32,000 nucleotides of DNA from Sulfolobus acidocaldarius DSM 639 (GCF_000012285.1 NC_007181.1:2040001-2072000); one strand, 5' to 3'; shown: positions 5,284 through 25,036, counted from the first letter of the stretch. Numbers and translations: made by a program. Notes: generated by a model not told the origin, from the letters alone.

Positions 5284-6771
5284 CTAAAGACTATCCACAA
5301 AGATTATTTTTCTTATTTTTTTATAGAAGGCTACCTTATCATTAACAAAGTTCATGATCTCCTCTTCACTAACCTTTCCCTTATATTCTTCCTTTAGTAA
5401 GACCTTAGCAAAGACCTTGTGACCGACCTCCGGGTCCCATTCACCATCAACATAGGCTCTCTTTACAGCCGGATGTTCCTCAAGGAGTAGCTCCAGATCT
5501 CTTGGAAATATTGGATAAGCTTTGTATTTCAGGAACCTTTTCTTTAAACCTCTAAAGTATAGGAGACCGTTCTGGTCCATCATAAAGATATCCCCTGTAT
5601 AAAGCCAACCGTCCTTGATAGCCTTAGAACTCTCTTGAATATCTAGGATACCGTGACTACCATAACCCTTCATATTCCAAGGAGATTTGACTATCAACTC
5701 GCCATCCTGACCTATGGGCACATCCTTTGTACCTGTCTCCTTATCAACAATTCTTATCTTAACTCCAGGAAGAGGAATTCCTACACTACCATATACCTTG
5801 AGGTTTGCAGGTTGGTATGTAACAATTAGTCCCTCTGTAAGACCATAAGTTTGTACTAATGGGAGGTTTAACTCCTCAAAGTAAGCCTTTTGTAGGTCTG
5901 GAGGTACAGGGGCTGCTCCGGTTATACATAACTTAAGCGAAAACTTTTCCTTCTTGAGATTTGGTAATATTTCCTTAAACACCATAGGAGGGGCAGGCCA
6001 CGTAGTAACCTTATATTCTCGAATTAGATCTAGAGCCCTATTTGGATCATATCTCCTCATTAAAACAATTTTTCCCCTCTCCATAATAGTTTCTAACAGA
6101 GCGTCAAGCCCAAATATGTGGGAGATGGGGAGAGATATTAGAATTGTGTTCTCCTCTCCTATTTCACCAGCTCTGACCAAGGAACTGACATAGTTTGAGG
6201 AAATTAGTCCGTAATGGGTATGATAAACTTCATATGTTCTCCCTATAATTCCTGCATAATGCATAGACACCGCTATATCTTCCTTGGGGTTAATCTCTAC
6301 CTCGTCAACATTAGGGGAAGAATCTAAATCATTTAGGCTATTAAATGAAAAGACATTGTAACGTGACATCACCTCTTTCTCTCTCTTGTATATTTCCTCC
6401 TCAGTAACTATCATCTTTGGGTCAGTCAACGAAAGTTGGTATTCAAGGTCCTTGCCTGATGACAATGGATCAATTAAGGCTACCCTTACTCCTAACATGG
6501 AGGAGCCAAAAAACACTGGAATAACCTGTGGAGCATTAGACATAATAAGTGAAATAGCGTCTCCCTTTTTCAGTCCATGTTCCTTTAGGTAACTTGCGAA
6601 GCGTTTAGCGAAGGAGTATAAACTCGAGTAACTGAATTCTTTCCCCTCAAAGACCAAGAGTGTTAAATCACCTTTTTCCTTCACAGACTTATTCAACACC
6701 TCATGAATTGGAATCTCAGGGATGTTAAGATCACTCAGGTTTTCAGGGTAAAACTTTGACCATATATCCAT
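5284..6771 (-). CDS. Acyl-CoA synthetase-like (ANL superfamily) paralog with a degenerate P-loop and truncated C-terminus
   Basis: 'QTYGLTEG' (GYGxTE) and 'WLYTGD' (YxTGD) are present. The P-loop position reads 'HYAGIIGRTYEV' (6226..6261) instead of 'YTSGTTGxPKGV'. The protein ends '...KIIFVDSL', before the usual 'PKTxSGK' catalytic-Lys motif. Confidence 0.8.
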   Translation of the reverse strand: MDIWSKFYPENLSDLNIPEIPIHEVLNKSVKEKGDLTLLVFEGKEFSYSSLYSFAKRFASYLKEHGLKKGDAISLIMSNAPQVIPVFFGSSMLGVRVALIDPLSSGKDLEYQLSLTDPKMIVTEEEIYKREKEVMSRYNVFSFNSLNDLDSSPNVDEVEINPKEDIAVSMHYAGIIGRTYEVYHTHYGLISSNYVSSLVRAGEIGEENTILISLPISHIFGLDALLETIMERGKIVLMRRYDPNRALDLIREYKVTTWPAPPMVFKEILPNLKKEKFSLKLCITGAAPVPPDLQKAYFEELNLPLVQTYGLTEGLIVTYQPANLKVYGSVGIPLPGVKIRIVDKETGTKDVPIGQDGELIVKSPWNMKGYGSHGILDIQESSKAIKDGWLYTGDIFMMDQNGLLYFRGLKKRFLKYKAYPIFPRDLELLLEEHPAVKRAYVDGEWDPEVGHKVFAKVLLKEEYKGKVSEEEIMNFVNDKVAFYKKIRKIIFVDSL

Positions 6772-10680: not shown

Positions 10681-12348
10681 TTAAGAAGAAGTAAATAAGT
10701 TTTTATATTTGTCCCTCAGTAATTTCTTATCAAACTTTCCTGTACTTGTTTTAGGTATCTCATCAACAAAGACAATATCATCTGGTAACTGCCACTTGGC
10801 AAACTTCTTGGACAAGTGATCAAGCAATGACTTCTTTACCTCGTCCTTAGGCAAATTCTCGTAATCCGACTTGAGCACTACAATAGCCAATGGTCTCTCA
10901 CCCCACTTAGGGTGAGGAACACCAACAACACTAGCCTCCCTAACATAAGGATGAGCCATCAAAAAGTTCTCCAAATCAATACTACTAATCCACTCACCAC
11001 CACTCTTAATCACATCCTTCAACCTATCAACAAGCCTAATATAACCCAGAGGATCAACAACACCAACATCACCACTCCTCCACCAACCATCAGGGGTAAA
11101 GGACTGTGATGTCCTGGGGTCGTTGTAATACTCTCTAGTTATCCACGGTCCTCTTATCCAAATCTCACCAACACTCTTACCATCCCATGGCAACTCCTGA
11201 TTAGTAATTGGGTCAACAACCTTAACTTCAACACCGAAAACAATCAATCCCTGCTTCATTTTAAGGAACTTATCCTCAGCAGGTAAATTATCTATCTCTG
11301 ACTTGGAGAAACCCACAGATACCACTGGACTAGTCTCAGTTGCACCATACCCCTGATAAACTTCCACACCATATTTAGCCAGTTCTGATACTAGTTTAGA
11401 TGGTGGTTCCTGACCTCCCATAGAGATCTTTAAGCCCTTAAGGTCTGGTTTAGGATCCATCTTTTCCAATCTTTTAAGAAGCTCAATTATTATAGTGGGC
11501 ACTGCTGCAGTTCTAGTGACCTTGTAATTTAAGATGTAGTCTGTTAGACTCTCAGGTGTAGGTCTTCCAGGATATATCTGTCTACATCCCTGCATTGCAG
11601 CAGCAAATGGAGTTCCCCATCCATTGGCGTGAAACATTGGAACAACTTGAAGTAATGTGTCTGTGGGTCTCATATCATGGGCAACGGTCATTGCGTGAAG
11701 CACCACTGACCTGTGAGAGTAGAAAACTCCCTTGGGTAGACCTGTTGTCCCTGAGGTAAAAGCAGCATAAGCAGCGCTCTTTTCATTCACTTCTTCAAAT
11801 CTTCTATTTGGAGAGTGGGATTTTACCAATTCCTCATATCCGTAAACTTTTGATGCTAGACTCATACCCTTTAGGGGCTCTATCTCCTCAAGTGACTTAT
11901 CACTCATTACCACAATGAAATCAAATTTATACTCCTTGGATAGGATCTGTGCAAGTAATAACAGTGAGTCGTCTATAAACAGACCTTTAGCCTTGGTGTG
12001 TTTTACAATATAAACTAAATCAGATGGGTGAAGCCTGAAATTAAGCTCTAACAGGACTCCTCCTATTGAAGGAACTGAAAAATATGACTCGAAAAACCTA
12101 TGGTCGTTCCAGTCTATTATACCCACAACATCACTGGGCTTAACATCAAGTTCCTTTTCCAGAGCATTAGCCATACTACGCACTCTATCTAATACCTTTC
12201 CGTAGTTTAGAATATGCAGTTCTCCACCCTGAAGTCTTCTATCGGAAATGATCTCAGTCGTAGGGTGAACCTTTCCTGCGTATTCCAAAACCTTATGAAC
12301 ACTTAATTGCCAATCATCGTTTGTAGTGGATTTAGCTCCATCAATCAT
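10681..12348 (-). CDS. Medium/long-chain fatty-acid--CoA ligase (AMP-forming acyl-CoA synthetase)
   Basis: Motifs present: '[16 protein letters not shown]' P-loop, '[10 protein letters not shown]', 'GYGATET', 'WWRSGD', '[14 protein letters not shown]' and '[10 protein letters not shown]'. I chose the ATG at 12348; the track start is a TTG at 12369. Confidence 0.85.
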
Positions 12349-12411
12349 AATATATACTACATTTAGCAATTTTATATATTTAACTTGAAATACAACTTAT
12401 AACTTTCGACA

Positions 12412-12427
12412 TTAATAACGTTATTAA
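12412..12427. promoter_or_regulatory. Perfect 16-bp palindrome TTAATAACGTTATTAA in a divergent promoter region; candidate operator
   Basis: Read directly from the sequence: TTAATAAC is the reverse complement of GTTATTAA. It lies between the acyl-CoA synthetase start (minus strand) and the R2lox-like gene start (plus strand). Its function is inferred only. Confidence 0.35.
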
Positions 12428-12557
12428 CTGTTTAATTTCCACTTATCCATTAGATATGTTGAGTTGATTTCGTTTAAGAAAAATAAATAACTTAAATAAA
12501 AGGCAAATTTATTAATAGGAAGTATTACTTATTATATTAATCAAGGGTGAAATAGAT

Positions 12558-13550
12558 ATGATTAATTCAGAGTATGGAAATACTACCAAGGAAGGAAAAA
12601 TACTTCACAATAAGTTTAAATCAACTGTAGAGGGACTTGACTGGAACACATTTCCCATGAGACTATTTGAAATTGGAGAGAAATTCAGGTGGACTGCATA
12701 TGAGCTAGATTTTTCTAAGGATAGAGAGGACTGGAAAAAGTTAAAGCCATCTGACAGAACCCAAAACAAAATTATATCTTCTTATTTCCTAGCAGGAGAG
12801 GAGTGTGTAGCTAGGGATATATTACCCTTAGCCAACGCAATGGAGGAGTTGGGGTTAATTGAGGAAGCCCTGTATCTTACACAGTTTGCTAGAGACGAAG
12901 CTAATCATACTGTAGCATTTAGAAAGTGGTTTGAGAGTGTAGGTGAGACAGAAGGAATATATGACTTCACCTACAAAAATGAGCCGTATAGGAGATTGTT
13001 CTACGAAATAATACCAACAGATATGAGAAGGTTATATAATGATCCTTCACCTGAAAACATAGTAAGGGCAGTAGTTTCCTATAACTTTGTTGCAGAAGGA
13101 ATATTAGCAGAAACAGGATATTACGGTTATGTGAAGGGTTATGAGAAAATCTTACCTGCTTTACCTGGACTATATAAGATGGTTAAGTTAATCACCAGGG
13201 ATGAAGCTAGACATATTTCGTTTGGTGCATATGTGGCTGCACTAATGATATCAATGCATGGTGACAGTGTGTTAAATGAGTTCAATAGGTATTTCGGGCA
13301 GTTAACCCAAGAGATAGGATTTCCTTTAATCGAAGCTAATAGAAAGATCCAGTTATCATATGACTGGAAAGAAGAAGACAAAGGACCTCTCTACAAATAC
13401 TTCGTGGAAAGCGAAGAAGGTTTTCAAGACGTGATGAGTTTTGCCACTAGGATGTTCCAGCAGAGATATGCTGTAATAGAGAGAGCAGTGAAAATGAGAC
13501 CTGAACAAGTAAGGAGACTACATTTAAGAGATATAGGTATAGAAGAATAA
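12558..13550 (+). CDS. R2-like ligand-binding oxidase (R2lox)-type ferritin-like di-metal carboxylate protein, paralog A
   Basis: The ligand set is 'AGEEC' (E81), 'RDEANH' (E114/H117), 'VAEGILAETGY' (E180) and 'RDEARH' (E216/H219). Phe121 occupies the position of the RNR radical Tyr. V84 (E+3) and Y175 (E-5) are present. GGTGA lies at 12546..12550, 7 nt before the ATG. Confidence 0.75.
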   Translation: MINSEYGNTTKEGKILHNKFKSTVEGLDWNTFPMRLFEIGEKFRWTAYELDFSKDREDWKKLKPSDRTQNKIISSYFLAGEECVARDILPLANAMEELGLIEEALYLTQFARDEANHTVAFRKWFESVGETEGIYDFTYKNEPYRRLFYEIIPTDMRRLYNDPSPENIVRAVVSYNFVAEGILAETGYYGYVKGYEKILPALPGLYKMVKLITRDEARHISFGAYVAALMISMHGDSVLNEFNRYFGQLTQEIGFPLIEANRKIQLSYDWKEEDKGPLYKYFVESEEGFQDVMSFATRMFQQRYAVIERAVKMRPEQVRRLHLRDIGIEE

Positions 13551-13620: not shown

Positions 13621-14565
13621 TTATCCTAGGAAGGACGTCACTAAGTTAATAAATTGAGTAGGATACTGGTATATCAGTCCATGACCCGCATCAGGGCTAA
13701 AGATATATAACTGCGCATTTGGTATGTTCTCAGCTAAATACTGACTATTCTGAGGAGGCAGTAAAAGATCACTGTCACCTCCGATAACAAGTGTTGGTGC
13801 TGTGATGTTTTGCAGTTGCCCTACTGAGTTAAACGTAGCTAAAGCATTAGTCTGCTTTAAAACACTTGTATAACTTATCGGGTATTTCTCCAGTGTAAAT
13901 AAGACATACTTTGCTACGTCTGGGTGAGCCTGTAACCAATCACTTGGCACTAAATAAGGAATTATAGTCTCGACCGTAACAGTTGGATCAGAAGCTGTAA
14001 ATCCAGTTATAATAGATTGAGGGGAGACTTTCGGAGGATACAGGTAAATATTAGGTGCAGTACATAGCAATACTAGTTTATTTACATAGCTCGGGTAGTC
14101 AATGGCTATCTGTTGGGCTACAAAACCACCCATTGACCAGCCTAGAACATTCAGGTTAGAGTAACCTAGATAGTTTAGTAGACCTATGGTATCACTGGCA
14201 TATAACGGAATTGTATAAGTTAATGCATCATGAAGAGGATCTTGACCTACTGTACCACTCCTTCCTGTACCCCTATTATCGAAAATTATGACCTCATACT
14301 GCGACGCTAAACCATTTATAATTATAGGTCCCCAACTCTCTAAGTTTCCCAAATATCCCATTATCATTATAAGTGGTTCTCCACTCCCATATATCTCATA
14401 GTAAATATGTATATTGTTTACTGGAGCCCAGCCGAACTCCTTGGGAACCAAGTTAGAGTAATTTATTTGAGGCGGTGTCTGTGATATACTTAACGGGATT
14501 CTCGTAGCTAATGCGCCTGCTATAGCCCCAGCACCTAAAATCTTAATAGCGTCTCTCCTGTTCAT
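13621..14565 (-). CDS. Exported alpha/beta-fold hydrolase (esterase/lipase-like) with a twin-arginine signal peptide
   Basis: The N-terminus 'MNRRDAIKILGAGAIAGALA' is a Tat-type signal. 'GWSMGG' is the nucleophile elbow (GxSxG). 'GGDSDLL' and 'DAGHGL' are candidates for the Asp and His of the catalytic triad. Confidence 0.8.
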   Translation of the reverse strand: MNRRDAIKILGAGAIAGALATRIPLSISQTPPQINYSNLVPKEFGWAPVNNIHIYYEIYGSGEPLIMIMGYLGNLESWGPIIINGLASQYEVIIFDNRGTGRSGTVGQDPLHDALTYTIPLYASDTIGLLNYLGYSNLNVLGWSMGGFVAQQIAIDYPSYVNKLVLLCTAPNIYLYPPKVSPQSIITGFTASDPTVTVETIIPYLVPSDWLQAHPDVAKYVLFTLEKYPISYTSVLKQTNALATFNSVGQLQNITAPTLVIGGDSDLLLPPQNSQYLAENIPNAQLYIFSPDAGHGLIYQYPTQFINLVTSFLG

Positions 14566-14662
14566 GGCTGATTAAAGATATATCTAAACTAGTTTTTAAA
14601 GTTTTGTCATAAAGTTTCAGAATTTAGTAAAATAATTTCATTTGACTTAAAAATTCAGGGTA

Positions 14663-16171
14663 TTACCTACGCCTTACCAGGAGTAAGACAACTATAACAA
14701 TGATAATAACGACCACTATAACGACGATAATGAATGGGCTAATTGAAGGACTGCTTGTTGTTTGAGGTTGTGAGAGACCACTTGATAAAGGCTCAGTACT
14801 ACTAACTGATGTGGAAGAGCTCTCTCCTACCTGTGATAATGAAGTTGAAACTTGACTGCTAGTGGTAGCTTGATTTGAGGACGTTGTCTGGGACACTGAA
14901 GTTGTACTTATAGACGTTGATGTATTGCTAGTACTTGTGGGGGTACTTTGAGAAGTTGTACTAGTAGGTATCACACCGTATTTAATTTCATACACGTTAA
15001 TAATTAACGAAGAGCCTTCTGTATATGCAGAATACGCCTGGTTTCCTATAATAATTAGCGGGTTGTTCAATGTTATGTTGAATATATATCCTGTCTTGGT
15101 ATTCACCAGGTATAACTTATTTCCGTTTGCTATTGAGATGTTTTGTGATACCATAAATGCCTGAACGTCATTGGAAATAAGGGGGAGCTGAGATACCGTT
15201 TTAATATTTTCATCATGAATAGAGACTAAATCTAGCGTCCCATTACCTTTACCAATTATATACAAGGATGAATTAATGACTCCCAGGGGAGTTGAGGATA
15301 ATGGAAATTGGATCGAACCTATTTCCATTAATGGTTTCGGTGAGGATAAATTAAGATCATATACATTTATCCCAGTGTTTTTCAGGTCAACGTACACTAA
15401 GTTATTTACACTGGCGATCCAATCTATCTCTTGGGGTAACGTAAAGTTGGCGATGACACTGAGAGATACTGGGTCTGATGGGTTAGTAGCTAAATAGGCA
15501 ATAAGTTGGTTTGAACCCTGATATGAGTTGCCTAGAATAATTACCTTGTAGTTATGGTTGATTGCTATTCCATATGCAGCTGTTGGCATTCCCGTTAAAG
15601 GGGTTAAAGTGGTATAGGGAGGATAGTAAAACCACCACTGATTGGGCTCATAAGAGATTAGGACCATGGAGAGATTAAATCCTTCATTGGGATAATTAAG
15701 TATAACATTTTCAGTATATGCGTCGCTAACCATTATGAATTGACCCGGTCTGTTGTACAACGACGAGTTCACGAAAGTCCCAGACTGTATATTGTTATAG
15801 TACTTGATCCCGTAATACATTCCGAGATAGTGACCGTCTGTAAATGAAGATACGCTAACTGTTGGCATCACCGGTGATGAAAGTGTGTAATTCAAAATTA
15901 GCTTCTCAGTATTCTCTGATGAAAGGTAAATATAGCTTATGTTGATATCATATGGAGAACTGCCCTTAATAGATACTGCAGGAATAACAAGACCATTGTT
16001 GAAATAAGTTATACCATAACTACTTGTAGAGTTCAAGGGAAATTGAAATGTGTATAATAGTTGAGGATAGTATCCCACTGCAGAATTGAAAACTGTATAC
16101 GGATAAATTGAGATTGCTAATAATGATATTGAAATTACCAACACTAACACTGATGATAATCTTTCTTTCAC
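14663..16171 (-). CDS. Surface protein with an N-terminal signal/anchor, a globular domain, a Ser/Thr-rich stalk and a C-terminal transmembrane anchor
   Basis: The N-terminal hydrophobic segment is 'VLVLVISISLLAISIY'. A Ser/Thr-rich stretch of about 80 aa ('TSTTSQSTPTSTSNTSTSISTTS...') follows the globular part. The protein ends in 'FIIVVIVVVIIIVIVVLLLVRRR'. There are many N-x-S/T sequons. The segment 'NNLVYVDLKNTGINVYDLNLSSPKP' resembles an LVIVD-type beta-propeller repeat (weak). Confidence 0.6.
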   Translation of the reverse strand: MKERLSSVLVLVISISLLAISIYPYTVFNSAVGYYPQLLYTFQFPLNSTSSYGITYFNNGLVIPAVSIKGSSPYDINISYIYLSSENTEKLILNYTLSSPVMPTVSVSSFTDGHYLGMYYGIKYYNNIQSGTFVNSSLYNRPGQFIMVSDAYTENVILNYPNEGFNLSMVLISYEPNQWWFYYPPYTTLTPLTGMPTAAYGIAINHNYKVIILGNSYQGSNQLIAYLATNPSDPVSLSVIANFTLPQEIDWIASVNNLVYVDLKNTGINVYDLNLSSPKPLMEIGSIQFPLSSTPLGVINSSLYIIGKGNGTLDLVSIHDENIKTVSQLPLISNDVQAFMVSQNISIANGNKLYLVNTKTGYIFNITLNNPLIIIGNQAYSAYTEGSSLIINVYEIKYGVIPTSTTSQSTPTSTSNTSTSISTTSVSQTTSSNQATTSSQVSTSLSQVGESSSTSVSSTEPLSSGLSQPQTTSSPSISPFIIVVIVVVIIIVIVVLLLVRRR

Positions 16172-16354
16172 ATTTATATCATACTAAAAAATAAGTTTAA
16201 AAATGTTGGTGAAAATATATTGCGCTATTTTATTACCTTTATAAATTTTACACCAGAATGAAGTTTTTTAACTAGTTTCATAAAAAGCTCGAGACAGGAA
16301 AAACAGTAAGAAGAAAAACACTCTCACTTAAAAAGTAAAAACACGTTCCTTTAG

Positions 16355-18994
16355 CTATGGGAAGTAACTGTATGGTATATACAGTGACAGATATGGTACG
16401 TGTAATGATAGTCCAAGGGCATTAAGAGTCGAGTTGATTAATGTAAGCCTCGAGTTATAGACCGTTGTACTAGATAGATATACGTCAGACCCTGATATTG
16501 TTTGAGTAGAACCCGAGATCGTTGTACCTTGAGAATGCAACTGTGAATTACTTACGCCTATGGTATCACCATTTATGTTACTGTTCATCAAGTAGATCTG
16601 ACTACTGCTTATATTCTGCTGGGAGTTAGATATAGTTGATCCTGTGGCGTTTAATACAGAGCCAGATACGAACTGATTCGAGTTAGATATAGTTGAACTG
16701 ACTATATTTATTGTAGAACCTTGAGCGTTAATCGTAGACCCACTAATGGAGGAGCTTGTTAGGTATACATTCGAATTGGTTATGTATTGTTGTGAATTAG
16801 TTATTTGTGAATTGTAAGCCTGTAAAGTGGAGCCTGAGAGGTATATCTTGGAGCCTGATATTATTGTAACCACATTTAACAGTTTCGAGTTGGATATGTA
16901 AGCGTTAGTGTTTGTTAAGGTCTGCTTTGAGTTTGATACAGTGGTGGATCCTGAAATGTATAACGTGGAGCCCTGAATGTTCTGTGTAGTACTAGTTATT
17001 GTTGAACCTGTGGCGTTTAACGTGCTATCGCTTATGCTAACAGTAGACGAACTTATTGTCGAGCTAGACAAGGATATGAATGAGCCTCCACTTACGGTCT
17101 GAGTTACACCTGAAATGGTTGAGCCTGTAACATATAGTTTTGTACTGCTAAAGACAACATTTCCGCCATTTATCTGAGAGTTACTGAGGTAAATTGTCGA
17201 GCCCTGAATGTTCTGATTACTATTGGTTATTGTTGAACCTGAGGCAGACAGAGTAGACCCTACCATGTTTACGTTCGAAGAGCTTATTTGGGTATTAGTT
17301 AATGACACCATTGAGTTACGTATATTTTGTGTTACTCCCGTAATTGATGAACCACTCAGATAAAGATTAGTCCCTGTAATATTAGCTACTCCACTTCCAC
17401 TACTAGATAATTGCGAATTGGTCAAATAGACTGTTGACGATTGAATATTTTGGTTACAGTTTATTATGGAAGACCCTTGAGCGTTTAGTACAGAGTTGGA
17501 GAGGTAAATGTTTGTAGATGATATTGTGGAATCCACAACACTACTCTGAGAGTTTATGATTTGCATTAATGAGTTCACTATATTTGAGTTGATTATGCCT
17601 ATGTTTGAGTTTGACGTATACAGGTTTGAGTTAGATGACTTCAGAACTACTTGGGAGAATTTTGAATTACTTACATATGCTGTTGAGCCTATGAGGGACT
17701 GAGTTGAACTTAGAATAGTCACGTTATTGGCATTTATAACAGTGCTCTGGGCTGTTATAGTTGAACCAGATATAACAGTATTCTTTAGGTTAACTCCTGA
17801 ACTGTATATATTTTGAACGGAATTTTGTATAACAGTATTCACAGCACTTAAATTGGAGTTCTCAAGAGTTATCTGAGAGTTGTATATTTTCGAGTTAACT
17901 AGATCATTCACAGAATTAGTTATAGTAAAAGTGGAACCGTATAGGTCAGCAACAGCATTCTGAAGGTTAGAGTATATCACCTGAGCTGTGGACGAACTTA
18001 TATTCTGCACAACATTCATCAATGTTGAGTGATCAAGTTTTATGAAAGATTTAGACGCACCGACAAATGTATTAATGATGTTAGTCTTTTCCAAGTTTAG
18101 GGTAGAGGAATCATTGGCATACTGTTTTACGTTTTGTACAGTGGTACCTACTGAAGTTAGGGTGGTGTTTGACAAGTAGAGTGAGTCTCCATCTAGTAAC
18201 CCTCCGTTCGTTAATACTGACGAAGATATAATGCTGATGGAACTATTGTAGAAGTCCACATTATTTAGATAGTTTACAGTATTCCGCAACAGGAAATTAG
18301 ACATATAGAAATTATCATTTGTTAAGTTAAACGTGTCCTTAATATTTGGAACGTTAACTAGGTAAATATCACTAGACGTGATCTGTATGGAGTCATTGAA
18401 GTTAATTGTATTGGTCAAGTATAATTTTGAAGAGTAAACTTTCTGGTCTGACGAGTTTATTGAGGAACCGAACAGTTTTAACTGGCTATTATAAACCGTA
18501 AAAGCATCTCCTATTAATGATGTATTTTGTAGTGTTAAGTTGGATCTTTGGATGTTTTGTATTGAATTCCTTATTGAACTATAATACAAGAACAGACTAT
18601 CGTTGTTCAAGTTAAACTGTGAATTAGCAAAAACTGAATAGTTTGCAATGACTTTAGTGTTATTGAAAACACCCCTAGTAATTGATATTAATGAACCTAC
18701 TTGGACTGCAGTAGAGTTACTAATCCCAAAGCCATCTGCGAATATACTAGAGTTGTAGATGTAAATTTTCACATTTATAAAACTGCTATTGTATGTGTAG
18801 AGTATTGAATTATAAACATATAGTATAGCATTAGTTAACGTTGAGTTGTATAGCCTTTGGACTGAGTTCTTTATGTAGAGTATGGTAATTGGTGTGTTTT
18901 TGGGAGTTTGAGCAGTGGTCATTGTTCCGGCAGATACTAGAGTAATTAGTAATATAAGTCCTATAATTAAACCTAATTTATTTATTTTGTTCAT
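16355..18994 (-). CDS. Large secreted Ser/Asn/Thr-rich repeat protein, beta-solenoid-like, almost free of charged residues
   Basis: An 879-codon open frame carries the signal peptide 'MNKINKLGLIIGLILLITLVSAGT'. The C-terminal two-thirds is built from modules of about 19/38 aa such as 'GSTITNSNQNIQGSTIYLSNSQINGGNVVFSSTKLYVT'. There are dozens of N-x-S/T sequons and no C-terminal TM segment. Confidence 0.6.
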   Translation of the reverse strand: MNKINKLGLIIGLILLITLVSAGTMTTAQTPKNTPITILYIKNSVQRLYNSTLTNAILYVYNSILYTYNSSFINVKIYIYNSSIFADGFGISNSTAVQVGSLISITRGVFNNTKVIANYSVFANSQFNLNNDSLFLYYSSIRNSIQNIQRSNLTLQNTSLIGDAFTVYNSQLKLFGSSINSSDQKVYSSKLYLTNTINFNDSIQITSSDIYLVNVPNIKDTFNLTNDNFYMSNFLLRNTVNYLNNVDFYNSSISIISSSVLTNGGLLDGDSLYLSNTTLTSVGTTVQNVKQYANDSSTLNLEKTNIINTFVGASKSFIKLDHSTLMNVVQNISSSTAQVIYSNLQNAVADLYGSTFTITNSVNDLVNSKIYNSQITLENSNLSAVNTVIQNSVQNIYSSGVNLKNTVISGSTITAQSTVINANNVTILSSTQSLIGSTAYVSNSKFSQVVLKSSNSNLYTSNSNIGIINSNIVNSLMQIINSQSSVVDSTISSTNIYLSNSVLNAQGSSIINCNQNIQSSTVYLTNSQLSSSGSGVANITGTNLYLSGSSITGVTQNIRNSMVSLTNTQISSSNVNMVGSTLSASGSTITNSNQNIQGSTIYLSNSQINGGNVVFSSTKLYVTGSTISGVTQTVSGGSFISLSSSTISSSTVSISDSTLNATGSTITSTTQNIQGSTLYISGSTTVSNSKQTLTNTNAYISNSKLLNVVTIISGSKIYLSGSTLQAYNSQITNSQQYITNSNVYLTSSSISGSTINAQGSTINIVSSTISNSNQFVSGSVLNATGSTISNSQQNISSSQIYLMNSNINGDTIGVSNSQLHSQGTTISGSTQTISGSDVYLSSTTVYNSRLTLINSTLNALGLSLHVPYLSLYIPYSYFP
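16417..17557 (-). repeat. Intragenic degenerate tandem repeats (coding) within the 879-aa ORF; boundaries approximate
   Basis: The exact 17-mer gagccctgaatgttctg occurs at 16968 and 17199. The exact 16-mer gttattgttgaacctg occurs at 16995 and 17226. Both pairs are 231 bp (77 codons) apart. cctgtggcgtttaa occurs at 16641 and 17007, 366 bp (122 codons) apart. Confidence 0.7.
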
Positions 18995-23297: not shown

Positions 23298-23792
23298 TTA
23301 AGCTAATATCTTGGACTTTATTTTCCTGCTCATGTTCGACATTATAACTGCAGCATTGGTGTATCTAGCCAACTCTGTTAAACTACCTTTCTTAATCTTT
23401 ATTGAACCTCCCAATAACGCGACAGTAACGTCTAATTTACCTTGGATGATCTTTAACCAAGTATCGTAAGGAGCCTCTAATATCAGTGAACCCACAACCT
23501 TTGACATGTCCGTATGAAACTCCGTGCCTAAACATCTACCCTCTTTAATGTTTAGTTTTATTGCACCAGCAGTTGAGTTAAAGTCTACCGAATCAGCTTT
23601 AGCTTCTCCCTTCTTGTACATCTCTATTAGTGTCGCTCTTACTTTTTCAGGAACATTTGTCGATACTAGAACCACAGAGTCCCATGGTGCAGTCTTAGAG
23701 GCTTCATAGTACTCTTTACTTCCGTTAAGTAGTTTACACCACTCATCTGCCCATTCCTTACTTGGAAATAGATACTCTTGTGTTTGAGACAT
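23298..23792 (-). CDS. SCP2-like lipid-binding domain protein, paralog B
   Basis: 'YDTWLKIIQGKLDVTVALLGGSIKIKKGSLTELARY' matches the SCP2 signature. The N-terminus 'LFPSKEWADEWCKLLN' parallels paralog A ('LFPSKEWAQEFCRSLN'). I prefer the ATG at 23792 (MSQTQEY) over the track start at 23840. Confidence 0.65.
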   Translation of the reverse strand: MSQTQEYLFPSKEWADEWCKLLNGSKEYYEASKTAPWDSVVLVSTNVPEKVRATLIEMYKKGEAKADSVDFNSTAGAIKLNIKEGRCLGTEFHTDMSKVVGSLILEAPYDTWLKIIQGKLDVTVALLGGSIKIKKGSLTELARYTNAAVIMSNMSRKIKSKILA

Positions 23793-23981
23793 GTTCAAGA
23801 TATATAAATACATATTCTTATAAAAAATTTGTCCTAACATTAATTAATCAATACAAGAAAATTAGGTGGACTGGAGTAAAGACAGAAATAAAGGAAATAT
23901 TCCTTAATTTTTATTGACTAATAAATATTAAACGATTTTTCAAAAAAATTTTTATATCAGGATTTTAAAGATATATCGTTA

Positions 23982-23998: not shown

Positions 23999-25036
23999 TT
24001 GGATAAACCAGTAGAAATAACCCCAGACGGTAAGGTAGTTAGGAAAAGCTACTCTTCAGTAAAGAAGGGAATAGATTGGAACTCTTACCCCATGAGATTA
24101 TGGGCAAAATCTAATGAACTATTCTGGTCTCCGTTACAATTTAAGGAACTAATACAACAGGACAAGCAAGATTGGGAGACAATGAGTGAATCAGAAAGGG
24201 AGATATCTGAATACATTGCAACAGCGTTTTCCGCAGGAGAGGAGGCAGTATCTAGATATTTAGCGGAGCTAGTAATAGCTTTAGATGAGTTAGGATACAC
24301 TGAAGAAGTATTATTCCTTAATCAATTCCAGCAGGAGGAAACCAGACATACAGATGCTTTTAGGAGGTGGATGGACTCCATAGGTATGGATAAGGACACT
24401 GAGAAATGGACCACAGAAATTAATCCATCTTACTATGAGCTTTTCTACGTTGCATTACCCTCAGCCGCTTATGGAGTTAAGGCAAATCCATCTCCAGAGA
24501 GTATATTAAGATTTACTGCTACATATATGTTCTCGATAGAGGGTATAGCTGCAGAAACTGGATTTTACTTCTGGAGAACTATGTGGGAAAGGGGTAGACA
24601 TCTAAAAGGTATTTACGAGATTGTGAAAAGAGTAGCCGCTGATGAGTCTAGACATTTAGCGTTTGGGACTTACCTTACAACTATGCTAATAGGTGAAGAC
24701 CAATCCCTATACGATAAATTCTTAGAGTACTTCAATTATGCAGGTGGTTTAGCTGTAAGGCTGATTGGAACAATAGTGGAGCAACAGGTAAACAAATGGG
24801 AACCATACAAGGAGAAATGGGGAAGATATTTCGAATGGGTATATAAGGAGAACGGTCTAGGTTCACTGGTAGATTACGCTGCAAAAATGGTCCAGCACAG
24901 GCTATTCTACGTAAATAGGCTAAGGAACGCTAATAGAGAGAAGCTAAGATACATGCCATTAAACGAAGCTGCTCCAGTGATAGAGAACTTCGATACTGTA
25001 GAGAAATACCTTACTCCTCAGTATGATCCCGAATAG
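23999..25036 (+). CDS. R2-like ligand-binding oxidase (R2lox)-type di-metal carboxylate protein, paralog B
   Basis: TTG start. The ligand set is 'AGEEA' (E81), 'QEETRH' (E114/H117), 'SIEGIAAETGF' (E181) and 'ADESRH' (E216/H219). Phe121 sits at the radical-Tyr position. V84 and Y176 (E-5) are present. By eye it is only distantly related to paralog A. Confidence 0.75.
   Translation: MDKPVEITPDGKVVRKSYSSVKKGIDWNSYPMRLWAKSNELFWSPLQFKELIQQDKQDWETMSESEREISEYIATAFSAGEEAVSRYLAELVIALDELGYTEEVLFLNQFQQEETRHTDAFRRWMDSIGMDKDTEKWTTEINPSYYELFYVALPSAAYGVKANPSPESILRFTATYMFSIEGIAAETGFYFWRTMWERGRHLKGIYEIVKRVAADESRHLAFGTYLTTMLIGEDQSLYDKFLEYFNYAGGLAVRLIGTIVEQQVNKWEPYKEKWGRYFEWVYKENGLGSLVDYAAKMVQHRLFYVNRLRNANREKLRYMPLNEAAPVIENFDTVEKYLTPQYDPE

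Follow-up and report, generated by a model that had tools for sequence, protein, structure and literature searches.

Saci_2212 of Sulfolobus acidocaldarius is an R2-like ligand-binding oxidase of a lipid gene module, with a clade-specific insertion after the tunnel-gating loop

Is the gene at 12558-13550 of this locus the small subunit of a class I ribonucleotide reductase (RNR), as it has been called, or an R2lox (R2-like ligand-binding oxidase), and what would such a protein do among genes of lipid metabolism? The window, i.e. the whole stretch of 32,000 nucleotides analysed here, corresponds to positions 2,040,001-2,072,000 of the single-contig S. acidocaldarius genome (2,225,959 bp). Adding 2,040,000 to the window coordinates gives exactly the RefSeq coordinates of Saci_2212, 2052558-2053550 on the plus strand, where the product is named R2-like ligand-binding oxidase. 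The gene table in the supplement of PMC8578740 gives the same name to Saci_2220 at 2063999-2065036 (+), the second R2lox gene of the window.

12545-12550, plus strand: Shine-Dalgarno-like GGGTGA, 7 nt 5' of the Saci_2212 ATG, read from the sequence and putative in function
12558-13550, plus strand: R2lox paralog A, Saci_2212 (SACI_RS10695), 330 aa, R2-like ligand-binding oxidase
23999-25036, plus strand: R2lox paralog B, Saci_2220, 345 aa, NF006200 476.1 bits, with the same ligand, Val, Tyr and Phe set

The genome contains four matches to Pfam PF00268, and S. acidocaldarius has been reported to encode four R2lox homologues (PMC9314684). The R2-like protein at 2.024 Mb is 100% identical to PDB 6QRZ (SaR2loxI, Saci_2188; 314/314 residues), and that at 0.915 Mb is 100% identical to PDB 7QBK (SaR2loxII, Saci_1112; 308/308 residues). 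Saci_2212 and its assignment to R2lox were thus recorded before, in annotation and among the four published homologues, and study of these four has so far been confined to SaR2loxI and SaR2loxII.

A first-pass annotation of the window, made from the sequence alone, had read 12558-13550 as an R2lox-type protein with all six carboxylate/His ligands, ligand spacings of 33 and 66 residues, Phe at E114+7, and Val and Tyr at the positions of the R2lox cross-link. Direct indexing of the translation found every named residue: E81, V84, E114, H117, F121, Y175, E180, E216, and H219. The six metal ligands are E81, E114-x-x-H117, E180, and E216-x-x-H219, and their spacings are 33, 66, and 36 residues, the first two as claimed.

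12798-12809, plus strand: codons E81 to V84, first metal ligand and putative cross-link valine, in the column of V78 of SaR2loxII
12897-12920, plus strand: codons E114-x-x-H117 to F121, ligands and the Phe that replaces the radical tyrosine
13080-13097, plus strand: codons Y175 to E180, putative cross-link tyrosine, in the column of Y170 of SaR2loxII, and ligand
13203-13214, plus strand: codons E216-x-x-H219, ligands, with E216 in the column of SaR2loxII E210

In a multiple alignment, Val84, Tyr175, and Glu216 share columns with Val78, Tyr170, and Glu210 of SaR2loxII, the first two of which are the cross-link pair and the last a metal ligand (PMC9314684). The offsets, Val at the first Glu +3 and Tyr at the third ligand -5, equal the geometry of GkR2loxI (E69/V72 and Y162/E167; PMC10867098), in agreement with the claimed Val/Tyr pair. 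The claimed Phe, F121, stands opposite Tyr122 (mature numbering), the radical site of E. coli K-12 NrdB, in a profile-sequence comparison, and replacement of the radical tyrosine by Phe is a stated hallmark of R2lox (PMC5134839). All nine positions are invariant among 30 family members, and Saci_2212 is under purifying selection (dN/dS of 0.024 at dS 0.43 against the sister species), which together indicate that the nine-residue pattern did not arise by chance. Furthermore, G80, A184, and Y188 correspond to G68, A171, and Y175 of GkR2loxI, which are mutagenesis sites according to PDB titles; G80 and A184 are invariant and Y188 is nearly so in the 30-member family alignment. SaR2loxII, which has the same residues, was crystallised without the cross-link, nearly metal-free and ligand-free (PMC9314684), so that the residues alone do not guarantee the chemistry.

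Family scores, PDB matches, fold ranking, and phylogeny, in addition to these residues, support the R2lox-type reading. On the NCBIfam equivalog for R2-like ligand-binding oxidases (NF006200, cut-off 194), Saci_2212 scores 463.5 bits and paralog B 476.1 bits. Sequence matches of Saci_2212 in the PDB are SaR2loxI (1e-65), SaR2loxII (4e-54), GkR2loxI (1e-46), and MtR2lox (7e-46), and the best true R2 in this search is human R2 (M2) at 1e-5. An AlphaFold2 model built from a 30-sequence alignment has a mean pLDDT of 95.4 and a pTM of 0.92, and the predicted structure is closest to solved R2lox structures, which occupy ranks 1-34 of a Foldseek search against the PDB (target-normalised TM 0.88-0.93, E-values of 1e-11 to 1e-16). 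The first true R2 in this ranking, Chlamydia NrdB (E 4e-6, TM 0.57), lies ten orders of magnitude behind R2lox in E-value. GkR2loxI (PDB 4HR0) and MtR2lox (PDB 3EE4) share with Saci_2212 the ligand set, the Val at E+3 and the Tyr at E-5, and match it in fold with a TM of 0.91, although these bacterial proteins are only ~30% identical to it and have a shorter G-H loop.

In a maximum likelihood tree of 55 sequences rooted on a distant ferritin-like group, paralogs A and B fall within the R2lox family, where the clade of SaR2loxI and SaR2loxII is their sister group (99% SH-aLRT). This tree was built without bona fide class I R2 sequences, and the separation from R2 comes from the score and fold comparisons. 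The Sulfolobaceae R2lox sequences fall into the I+II clade (96% SH-aLRT) and a second one (99%), which unites A and B with two metagenomic relatives and in which paralog B sits on a long stem. R2lox genes are present in 13 of 47 Sulfolobaceae genomes, belonging to 4 of 14 genera, and among these 47 genomes four copies are found only in the genus of S. acidocaldarius. Above-cut-off R2lox matches in an order-wide sample of 81 genomes are confined to Sulfolobaceae. One Sulfolobaceae R2lox gene (G112:C1:2151836-2152604) is broken into two adjacent frames of 191 and 141 aa, and is probably a pseudogene.

We conclude that Saci_2212 is a genuine R2-like ligand-binding oxidase. The rival reading takes it as a true class I RNR small subunit, either NrdB/NrdF or the Phe-containing class Ic R2c. 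Saci_2212 does pass PF00268 with 58.7 bits, and its arCOG category is Nucleotide transport and metabolism. In class Ic R2c proteins, Phe likewise occupies the tyrosine site and the metal centre is Mn/Fe, and these proteins work with a class I alpha subunit; to our knowledge, they have neither a ligand tunnel nor a Val-Tyr cross-link. Despite the common R2 scaffold and the Phe at the tyrosine position, the fold of class Ic R2c (Chlamydia trachomatis NrdB, PDB 1SYY/4M1I) matches that of Saci_2212 with a TM of just 0.57 (E 4e-6) against 0.9 for R2lox. RNR beta equivalogs score Saci_2212 at no more than 41 bits against cut-offs of at least 237 (the best model gives 41.4 bits, cut-off 237, and is not passed), and Phe stands in place of Tyr122. 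By model scores, PDB matches, and Foldseek, then, the two open reading frames do not group with bona fide RNR small subunits.

The genome also argues against this reading. The first-pass annotation held that a cognate RNR large subunit adjacent to such genes would speak against R2lox; the only RNR catalytic subunit, the single PF02867 match in the genome, lies at 1.154 Mb, ~0.9 Mb from Saci_2212, and its best model is NrdJ_Z of the AdoCbl-dependent class II (766 bits). No class I alpha subunit was found in this PF02867 search of the genome. Saccharolobus solfataricus also has a class II catalytic subunit, its NrdB-like protein does not bind NrdJ, and its dNTPs are not depleted by hydroxyurea (PMC5134839). 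On the combined evidence of model scores, Phe121, fold TM, and a class II-only genome, the reading of Saci_2212 as a class I RNR small subunit is refuted, and we leave it practically no chance.

This bears on a recent publication and on older annotations, in which saci_2212 is called an RNR beta subunit. In a study of nutrient excess, saci_2212 was among the most induced genes (log2FC 4.0 and 2.8), together with saci_2208, 2209, 2211, and 2219, and the induction of saci_2188 and saci_2212 was taken as a demand for RNR beta and DNA repair (PMC11486757, 2024; Table 3 and Discussion). Since both genes encode R2lox proteins and the only RNR is of class II, the RNR/DNA-repair interpretation is mistaken, and the induction belongs with that of the co-rising lipid genes.

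Co-expression places Saci_2212 in the same company. Independent component analysis of 95 RNA-seq profiles assigned Saci_2208 and Saci_2211-2226 to a "fatty-acid-related" iModulon, separate from the FadR iModulon, in which Saci_2212 has a weight of 0.116 and Saci_2220 the highest weight, 0.204 (PMC8578740). According to published data, SaR2loxII (Saci_1112) belongs to the FadR regulon and is derepressed in a fadR deletion, and all 13 of the 13 genes differentially expressed in this deletion lie within Saci_1103-1126. Control of Saci_2212 by FadR was considered and rejected, because the genes affected by the deletion are all Saci_1103-1126 and Saci_2212 is in another iModulon.

The neighbours of Saci_2212 are consistent with a lipid module.

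10681-12369, minus strand: acyl-CoA synthetase, Saci_2211, divergent from Saci_2212, NF004837 512.8 bits against a cut-off of 476
12412-12427, no strand: perfect 16-bp palindrome TTAATAACGTTATTAA in the shared Saci_2211/2212 promoter region, candidate operator
13621-14565, minus strand: alpha/beta hydrolase, Saci_2213, convergent, PF00561 96.9 bits, in the same published co-expression module
23298-23840 (RefSeq 23298-23792), minus strand: SCP2-like small protein, Saci_2219, divergent from paralog B, 37% identical to Saci_2216

The divergent long-chain acyl-CoA synthetase that had been noticed beside Saci_2212 is confirmed by its NF004837 score. The window contains three acyl-CoA synthetase genes and a fourth divergent gene of the AMP-binding family (5284-6771), HCDH/ECH fusions, a thiolase with a DUF35 partner, an acyl-CoA dehydrogenase, an esterase-type alpha/beta hydrolase, two SRPBCC/CoxG proteins, two paralogous SCP2-like proteins, and a Zn-alcohol dehydrogenase. 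The open reading frame at 5284-6771 stops inside the profile of the C-terminal domain (2-69 of 76 positions), and its orthologs are kept at 73-97% identity in Sulfolobus sp. A20 (genome G045) and in the sister species (G035). In the middle of the module, at 14663-18994, are two large open reading frames of 502 and 879 aa (Saci_2214 and Saci_2215), which belong to the same published iModulon and match no Pfam family at E 1e-5.

Paralog B was claimed to show the same residue pattern as paralog A, and the ligands, Val, Tyr, and Phe are all present at 23999-25036 (E81, V84, E114, H117, F121, Y176, E181, E216, and H219). Its start is a TTG behind the Shine-Dalgarno-like sequence GAGGAGGTG. With a dN/dS of 0.002 against the sister species for paralog B, in addition to the value given above for paralog A, both paralogs are clearly maintained by purifying selection. 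The SCP2-like gene divergent from paralog B has a counterpart elsewhere: in genome G097, the order SCP2-like gene, R2lox, and alcohol dehydrogenase gene is kept around the paralog B ortholog, and in other genomes SCP2-like homologs encoded next to R2lox score above the Pfam SCP2 cut-off. Saci_2216 gives a weak SCP2 match. An A-clade ortholog on a metagenome-assembled contig is also followed by SCP2 and Zn-alcohol dehydrogenase genes. An SCP2-type carrier adjoining R2lox, as found for paralog B and for this A-clade ortholog, is also a feature of the haloarchaeal R2lox clusters, which contain ferredoxin, sterol-carrier, and sterol-binding proteins. In contrast to these clusters, paralog A has no adjacent SCP2 or ferredoxin gene, its neighbours being the acyl-CoA synthetase and the alpha/beta hydrolase. 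When an SCP2 partner was sought next to paralog A, the open reading frame downstream of its Sulfolobus sp. A20 ortholog was found to be dissimilar to the SCP2-like proteins, and the open reading frame adjoining SaR2loxI likewise has no similarity to them. G097 contains a second, very divergent R2lox-like gene (G097:C8 4896-5924), 33% identical to paralog B, whose neighbours are homologous to the 879-aa secreted protein, to DUF973, and to CoxG; the families around R2lox are the same, but their order differs.

How far do paralogs A and B differ from the two R2lox proteins already studied in this organism? SaR2loxI and SaR2loxII share with Saci_2212 the family, the fold, the six ligands, the Phe, the Val/Tyr pair, and an acidic C-terminal tail, but they are only 37-40% identical to it and form a sister clade. 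One difference lies in and directly behind the loop that connects helices G and H, which is flexible and gates the ligand tunnel (PMC9314684).

13362-13424, plus strand: 21-residue insertion confined to the A/B clade, aa 269-289 of Saci_2212, immediately behind the G-H loop published as the tunnel gate

The gating-loop prolines are P257/P262/P267 in SaR2loxI and P257/P263/P268 in SaR2loxII (PMC9314684), and they are found at these numbers in both translations. In Saci_2212 they align to A260, K263, and Y268, so that the three prolines are lost, and the loop is followed by the insertion, which SaR2loxI and SaR2loxII do not have. Among 135 full-length relatives, the insertion at aa 269-289 and its Trp/Gly/Gly pattern are confined to the A/B clade, within which W270, G276, and G288 are invariant. 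In the AlphaFold2 model, the insertion is ordered, includes a short helix at 277-284, and has a pLDDT of ~97. From its alignment to the published loop prolines, the insertion would sit at the tunnel mouth, and this ordered element of the A/B clade is likely to alter how substrates enter or partners dock when compared with SaR2loxI and SaR2loxII.

These results bear on the possibility that Saci_2212 is simply a redundant recent duplicate with a role not distinct from those of SaR2loxI and SaR2loxII. One genome does hold four paralogs with common active-site residues, and SaR2loxII, like Saci_2212, is set among fatty-acid genes, being flanked by an acyl-CoA synthetase and an acyl-CoA dehydrogenase. 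However, identities are just 32-40% between A and B and between either of them and I or II. The two proteins also make up a clade apart, with good support and a loop insertion of its own, and both are under strong purifying selection. Moreover, the regulons differ: Saci_1112 belongs to that of FadR, whereas Saci_2212 and Saci_2220 are in the "fatty-acid-related" module. Redundancy is thus very unlikely, and a distinct role of paralogs A and B is the preferred reading. The acidic C-terminal tail carries a motif (basic-acidic-hydrophobic-Gly-hydrophobic-x-Glu; aa 315-330 in Saci_2212) common to the four paralogs and their orthologs, and in SaR2loxII the tail covers a positive surface patch. That the tail is conserved suggests, by analogy to the R1-binding tail of R2, that it may bind a partner.

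The Mn/Fe cofactor, the cross-link, and bound hydroxy fatty acids have been demonstrated in GkR2loxI and MtR2lox and are extended to Saci_2212 by homology. By analogy to these homologs, Saci_2212 would assemble a Mn/Fe cofactor with O2, an ether cross-link between Val84 and Tyr175 would form during this O2-dependent assembly, and the hydrophobic tunnel would hold a long aliphatic ligand with its head group on the metals. Once assembled, the enzyme may oxidise a lipid-type substrate by two electrons. Judging from the genomic context, Saci_2212 may serve a FadR-independent fatty-acid/lipid catabolic module, Saci_2208-2226, in which a long-chain substrate is probably oxidised and its products would be passed to the alcohol dehydrogenase, acyl-CoA synthetases, and beta-oxidation enzymes encoded nearby. 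Which substrate or partner is accepted would depend on the remodelled gate. For Saci_2212 itself, our evidence consists of the fold, the six ligands, the Phe, the Val/Tyr pair, a genome that lacks a class I partner, purifying selection, and expression together with lipid genes. We consider it highly probable that Saci_2212 is an R2lox with a clade-specific insertion that serves the FadR-independent lipid module, with the Mn/Fe cofactor, the Val84-Tyr175 link, and the long-chain ligand expected from its homologs.

What R2lox proteins do with their ligands is one point on which this proposal could be challenged. R2lox homologs co-purify with C16/C18 hydroxy fatty acids, which the Hogbom group considers probably not to be substrates, and neither MtR2lox nor SeR2lox showed ADO activity (PMC9314684). 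The claim of alkane-hydroxylase activity for GkR2loxI comes from crude lysates with small effects (PMC10867098). Saci_2212 could instead be a protein of R2lox fold that binds, carries, or senses a lipid without turnover, its Mn/Fe site being used only for the one-off self cross-linking. Such a role would agree with the finding that redox cycling of GkR2loxI with bound hydroxy fatty acids gave no product, these ligands being thought to be trapped (PMC9314684), and the other lipid-binding proteins of the window (two SCP2-like and two SRPBCC/CoxG proteins) fit lipid handling or trafficking. Against it, the six ligands, the Val, the Tyr, and second-sphere residues are strictly conserved across a deep family, dN/dS values of 0.002-0.024 fit a catalytic site better than a passive carrier, and the E202A/H205A variant of GkR2loxI lost some alkane-consuming activity, albeit in weak data (PMC10867098). 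We therefore regard a carrier or sensor without turnover as unlikely and favour an oxidase that acts on a lipid-type substrate.

A more specific version of the oxidase reading can be put forward as a tentative speculation, with a limited chance of being right. The A/B clade might represent a functionally distinct R2lox subtype whose insertion docks a lipid-delivering partner, such as the SCP2-like Saci_2216/2219 or the divergent acyl-CoA synthetase, and the clade might provide the oxidative entry step of the FadR-independent module for catabolism of long-chain lipids or hydrocarbons. If true, this would open the long-standing search for the physiological R2lox substrate to a direct genetic test in an archaeon amenable to genetics.

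R2lox is a well-studied family of Mn/Fe metalloproteins, and Saci_2212 adds no new kind of protein to it. What is added here is a clade-specific insertion at the gate, data on selection and synteny, a link to published co-expression, and a correction of the RNR reading. Since paralogs A and B are conserved, expressed, co-regulated with a second fatty-acid module, and remodelled at the tunnel gate, they are reasonable targets for purification from the native host and for knock-outs.

Both the sister species (97-98% identity) and Sulfolobus sp. A20 (77%) keep the divergent pair of acyl-CoA synthetase and R2lox paralog A. The pair is not found beside the 57% identical ortholog in genome G102, whose neighbours are an MFS transporter, an IS605-type transposase, and methylcitrate-type genes. 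The synteny of paralog A is thus thin, comprising one very close and one moderately close species.

The palindrome at 12412-12427 between the two divergent genes may be a local operator. It occurs as a single copy in the window, where no relative with up to three mismatches was found and 0.37 are expected by chance. In the sister species, it reads TCAATAACATTATTGA, with symmetric changes at positions 2 (T>C) and 15 (A>G) and a G>A change at the centre. The palindrome was not seen in Sulfolobus sp. A20, the other promoters of the module have no similar site, and their intergenic regions have no comparable dyad. A single operator for the whole module is therefore not supported, as the palindrome has no relative in the window and there is no comparable dyad elsewhere.

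In the sister species, the blocks of paralogs A and B lie ~67 kb apart as against 11 kb in S. acidocaldarius. A 112-residue alpha/beta hydrolase fragment adjoins the Saci_2214 ortholog there, and a full copy of the hydrolase gene adjoins paralog A. This suggests an insertion or rearrangement with a breakpoint in or next to the hydrolase gene, corresponding to 13621-14663 of the window.
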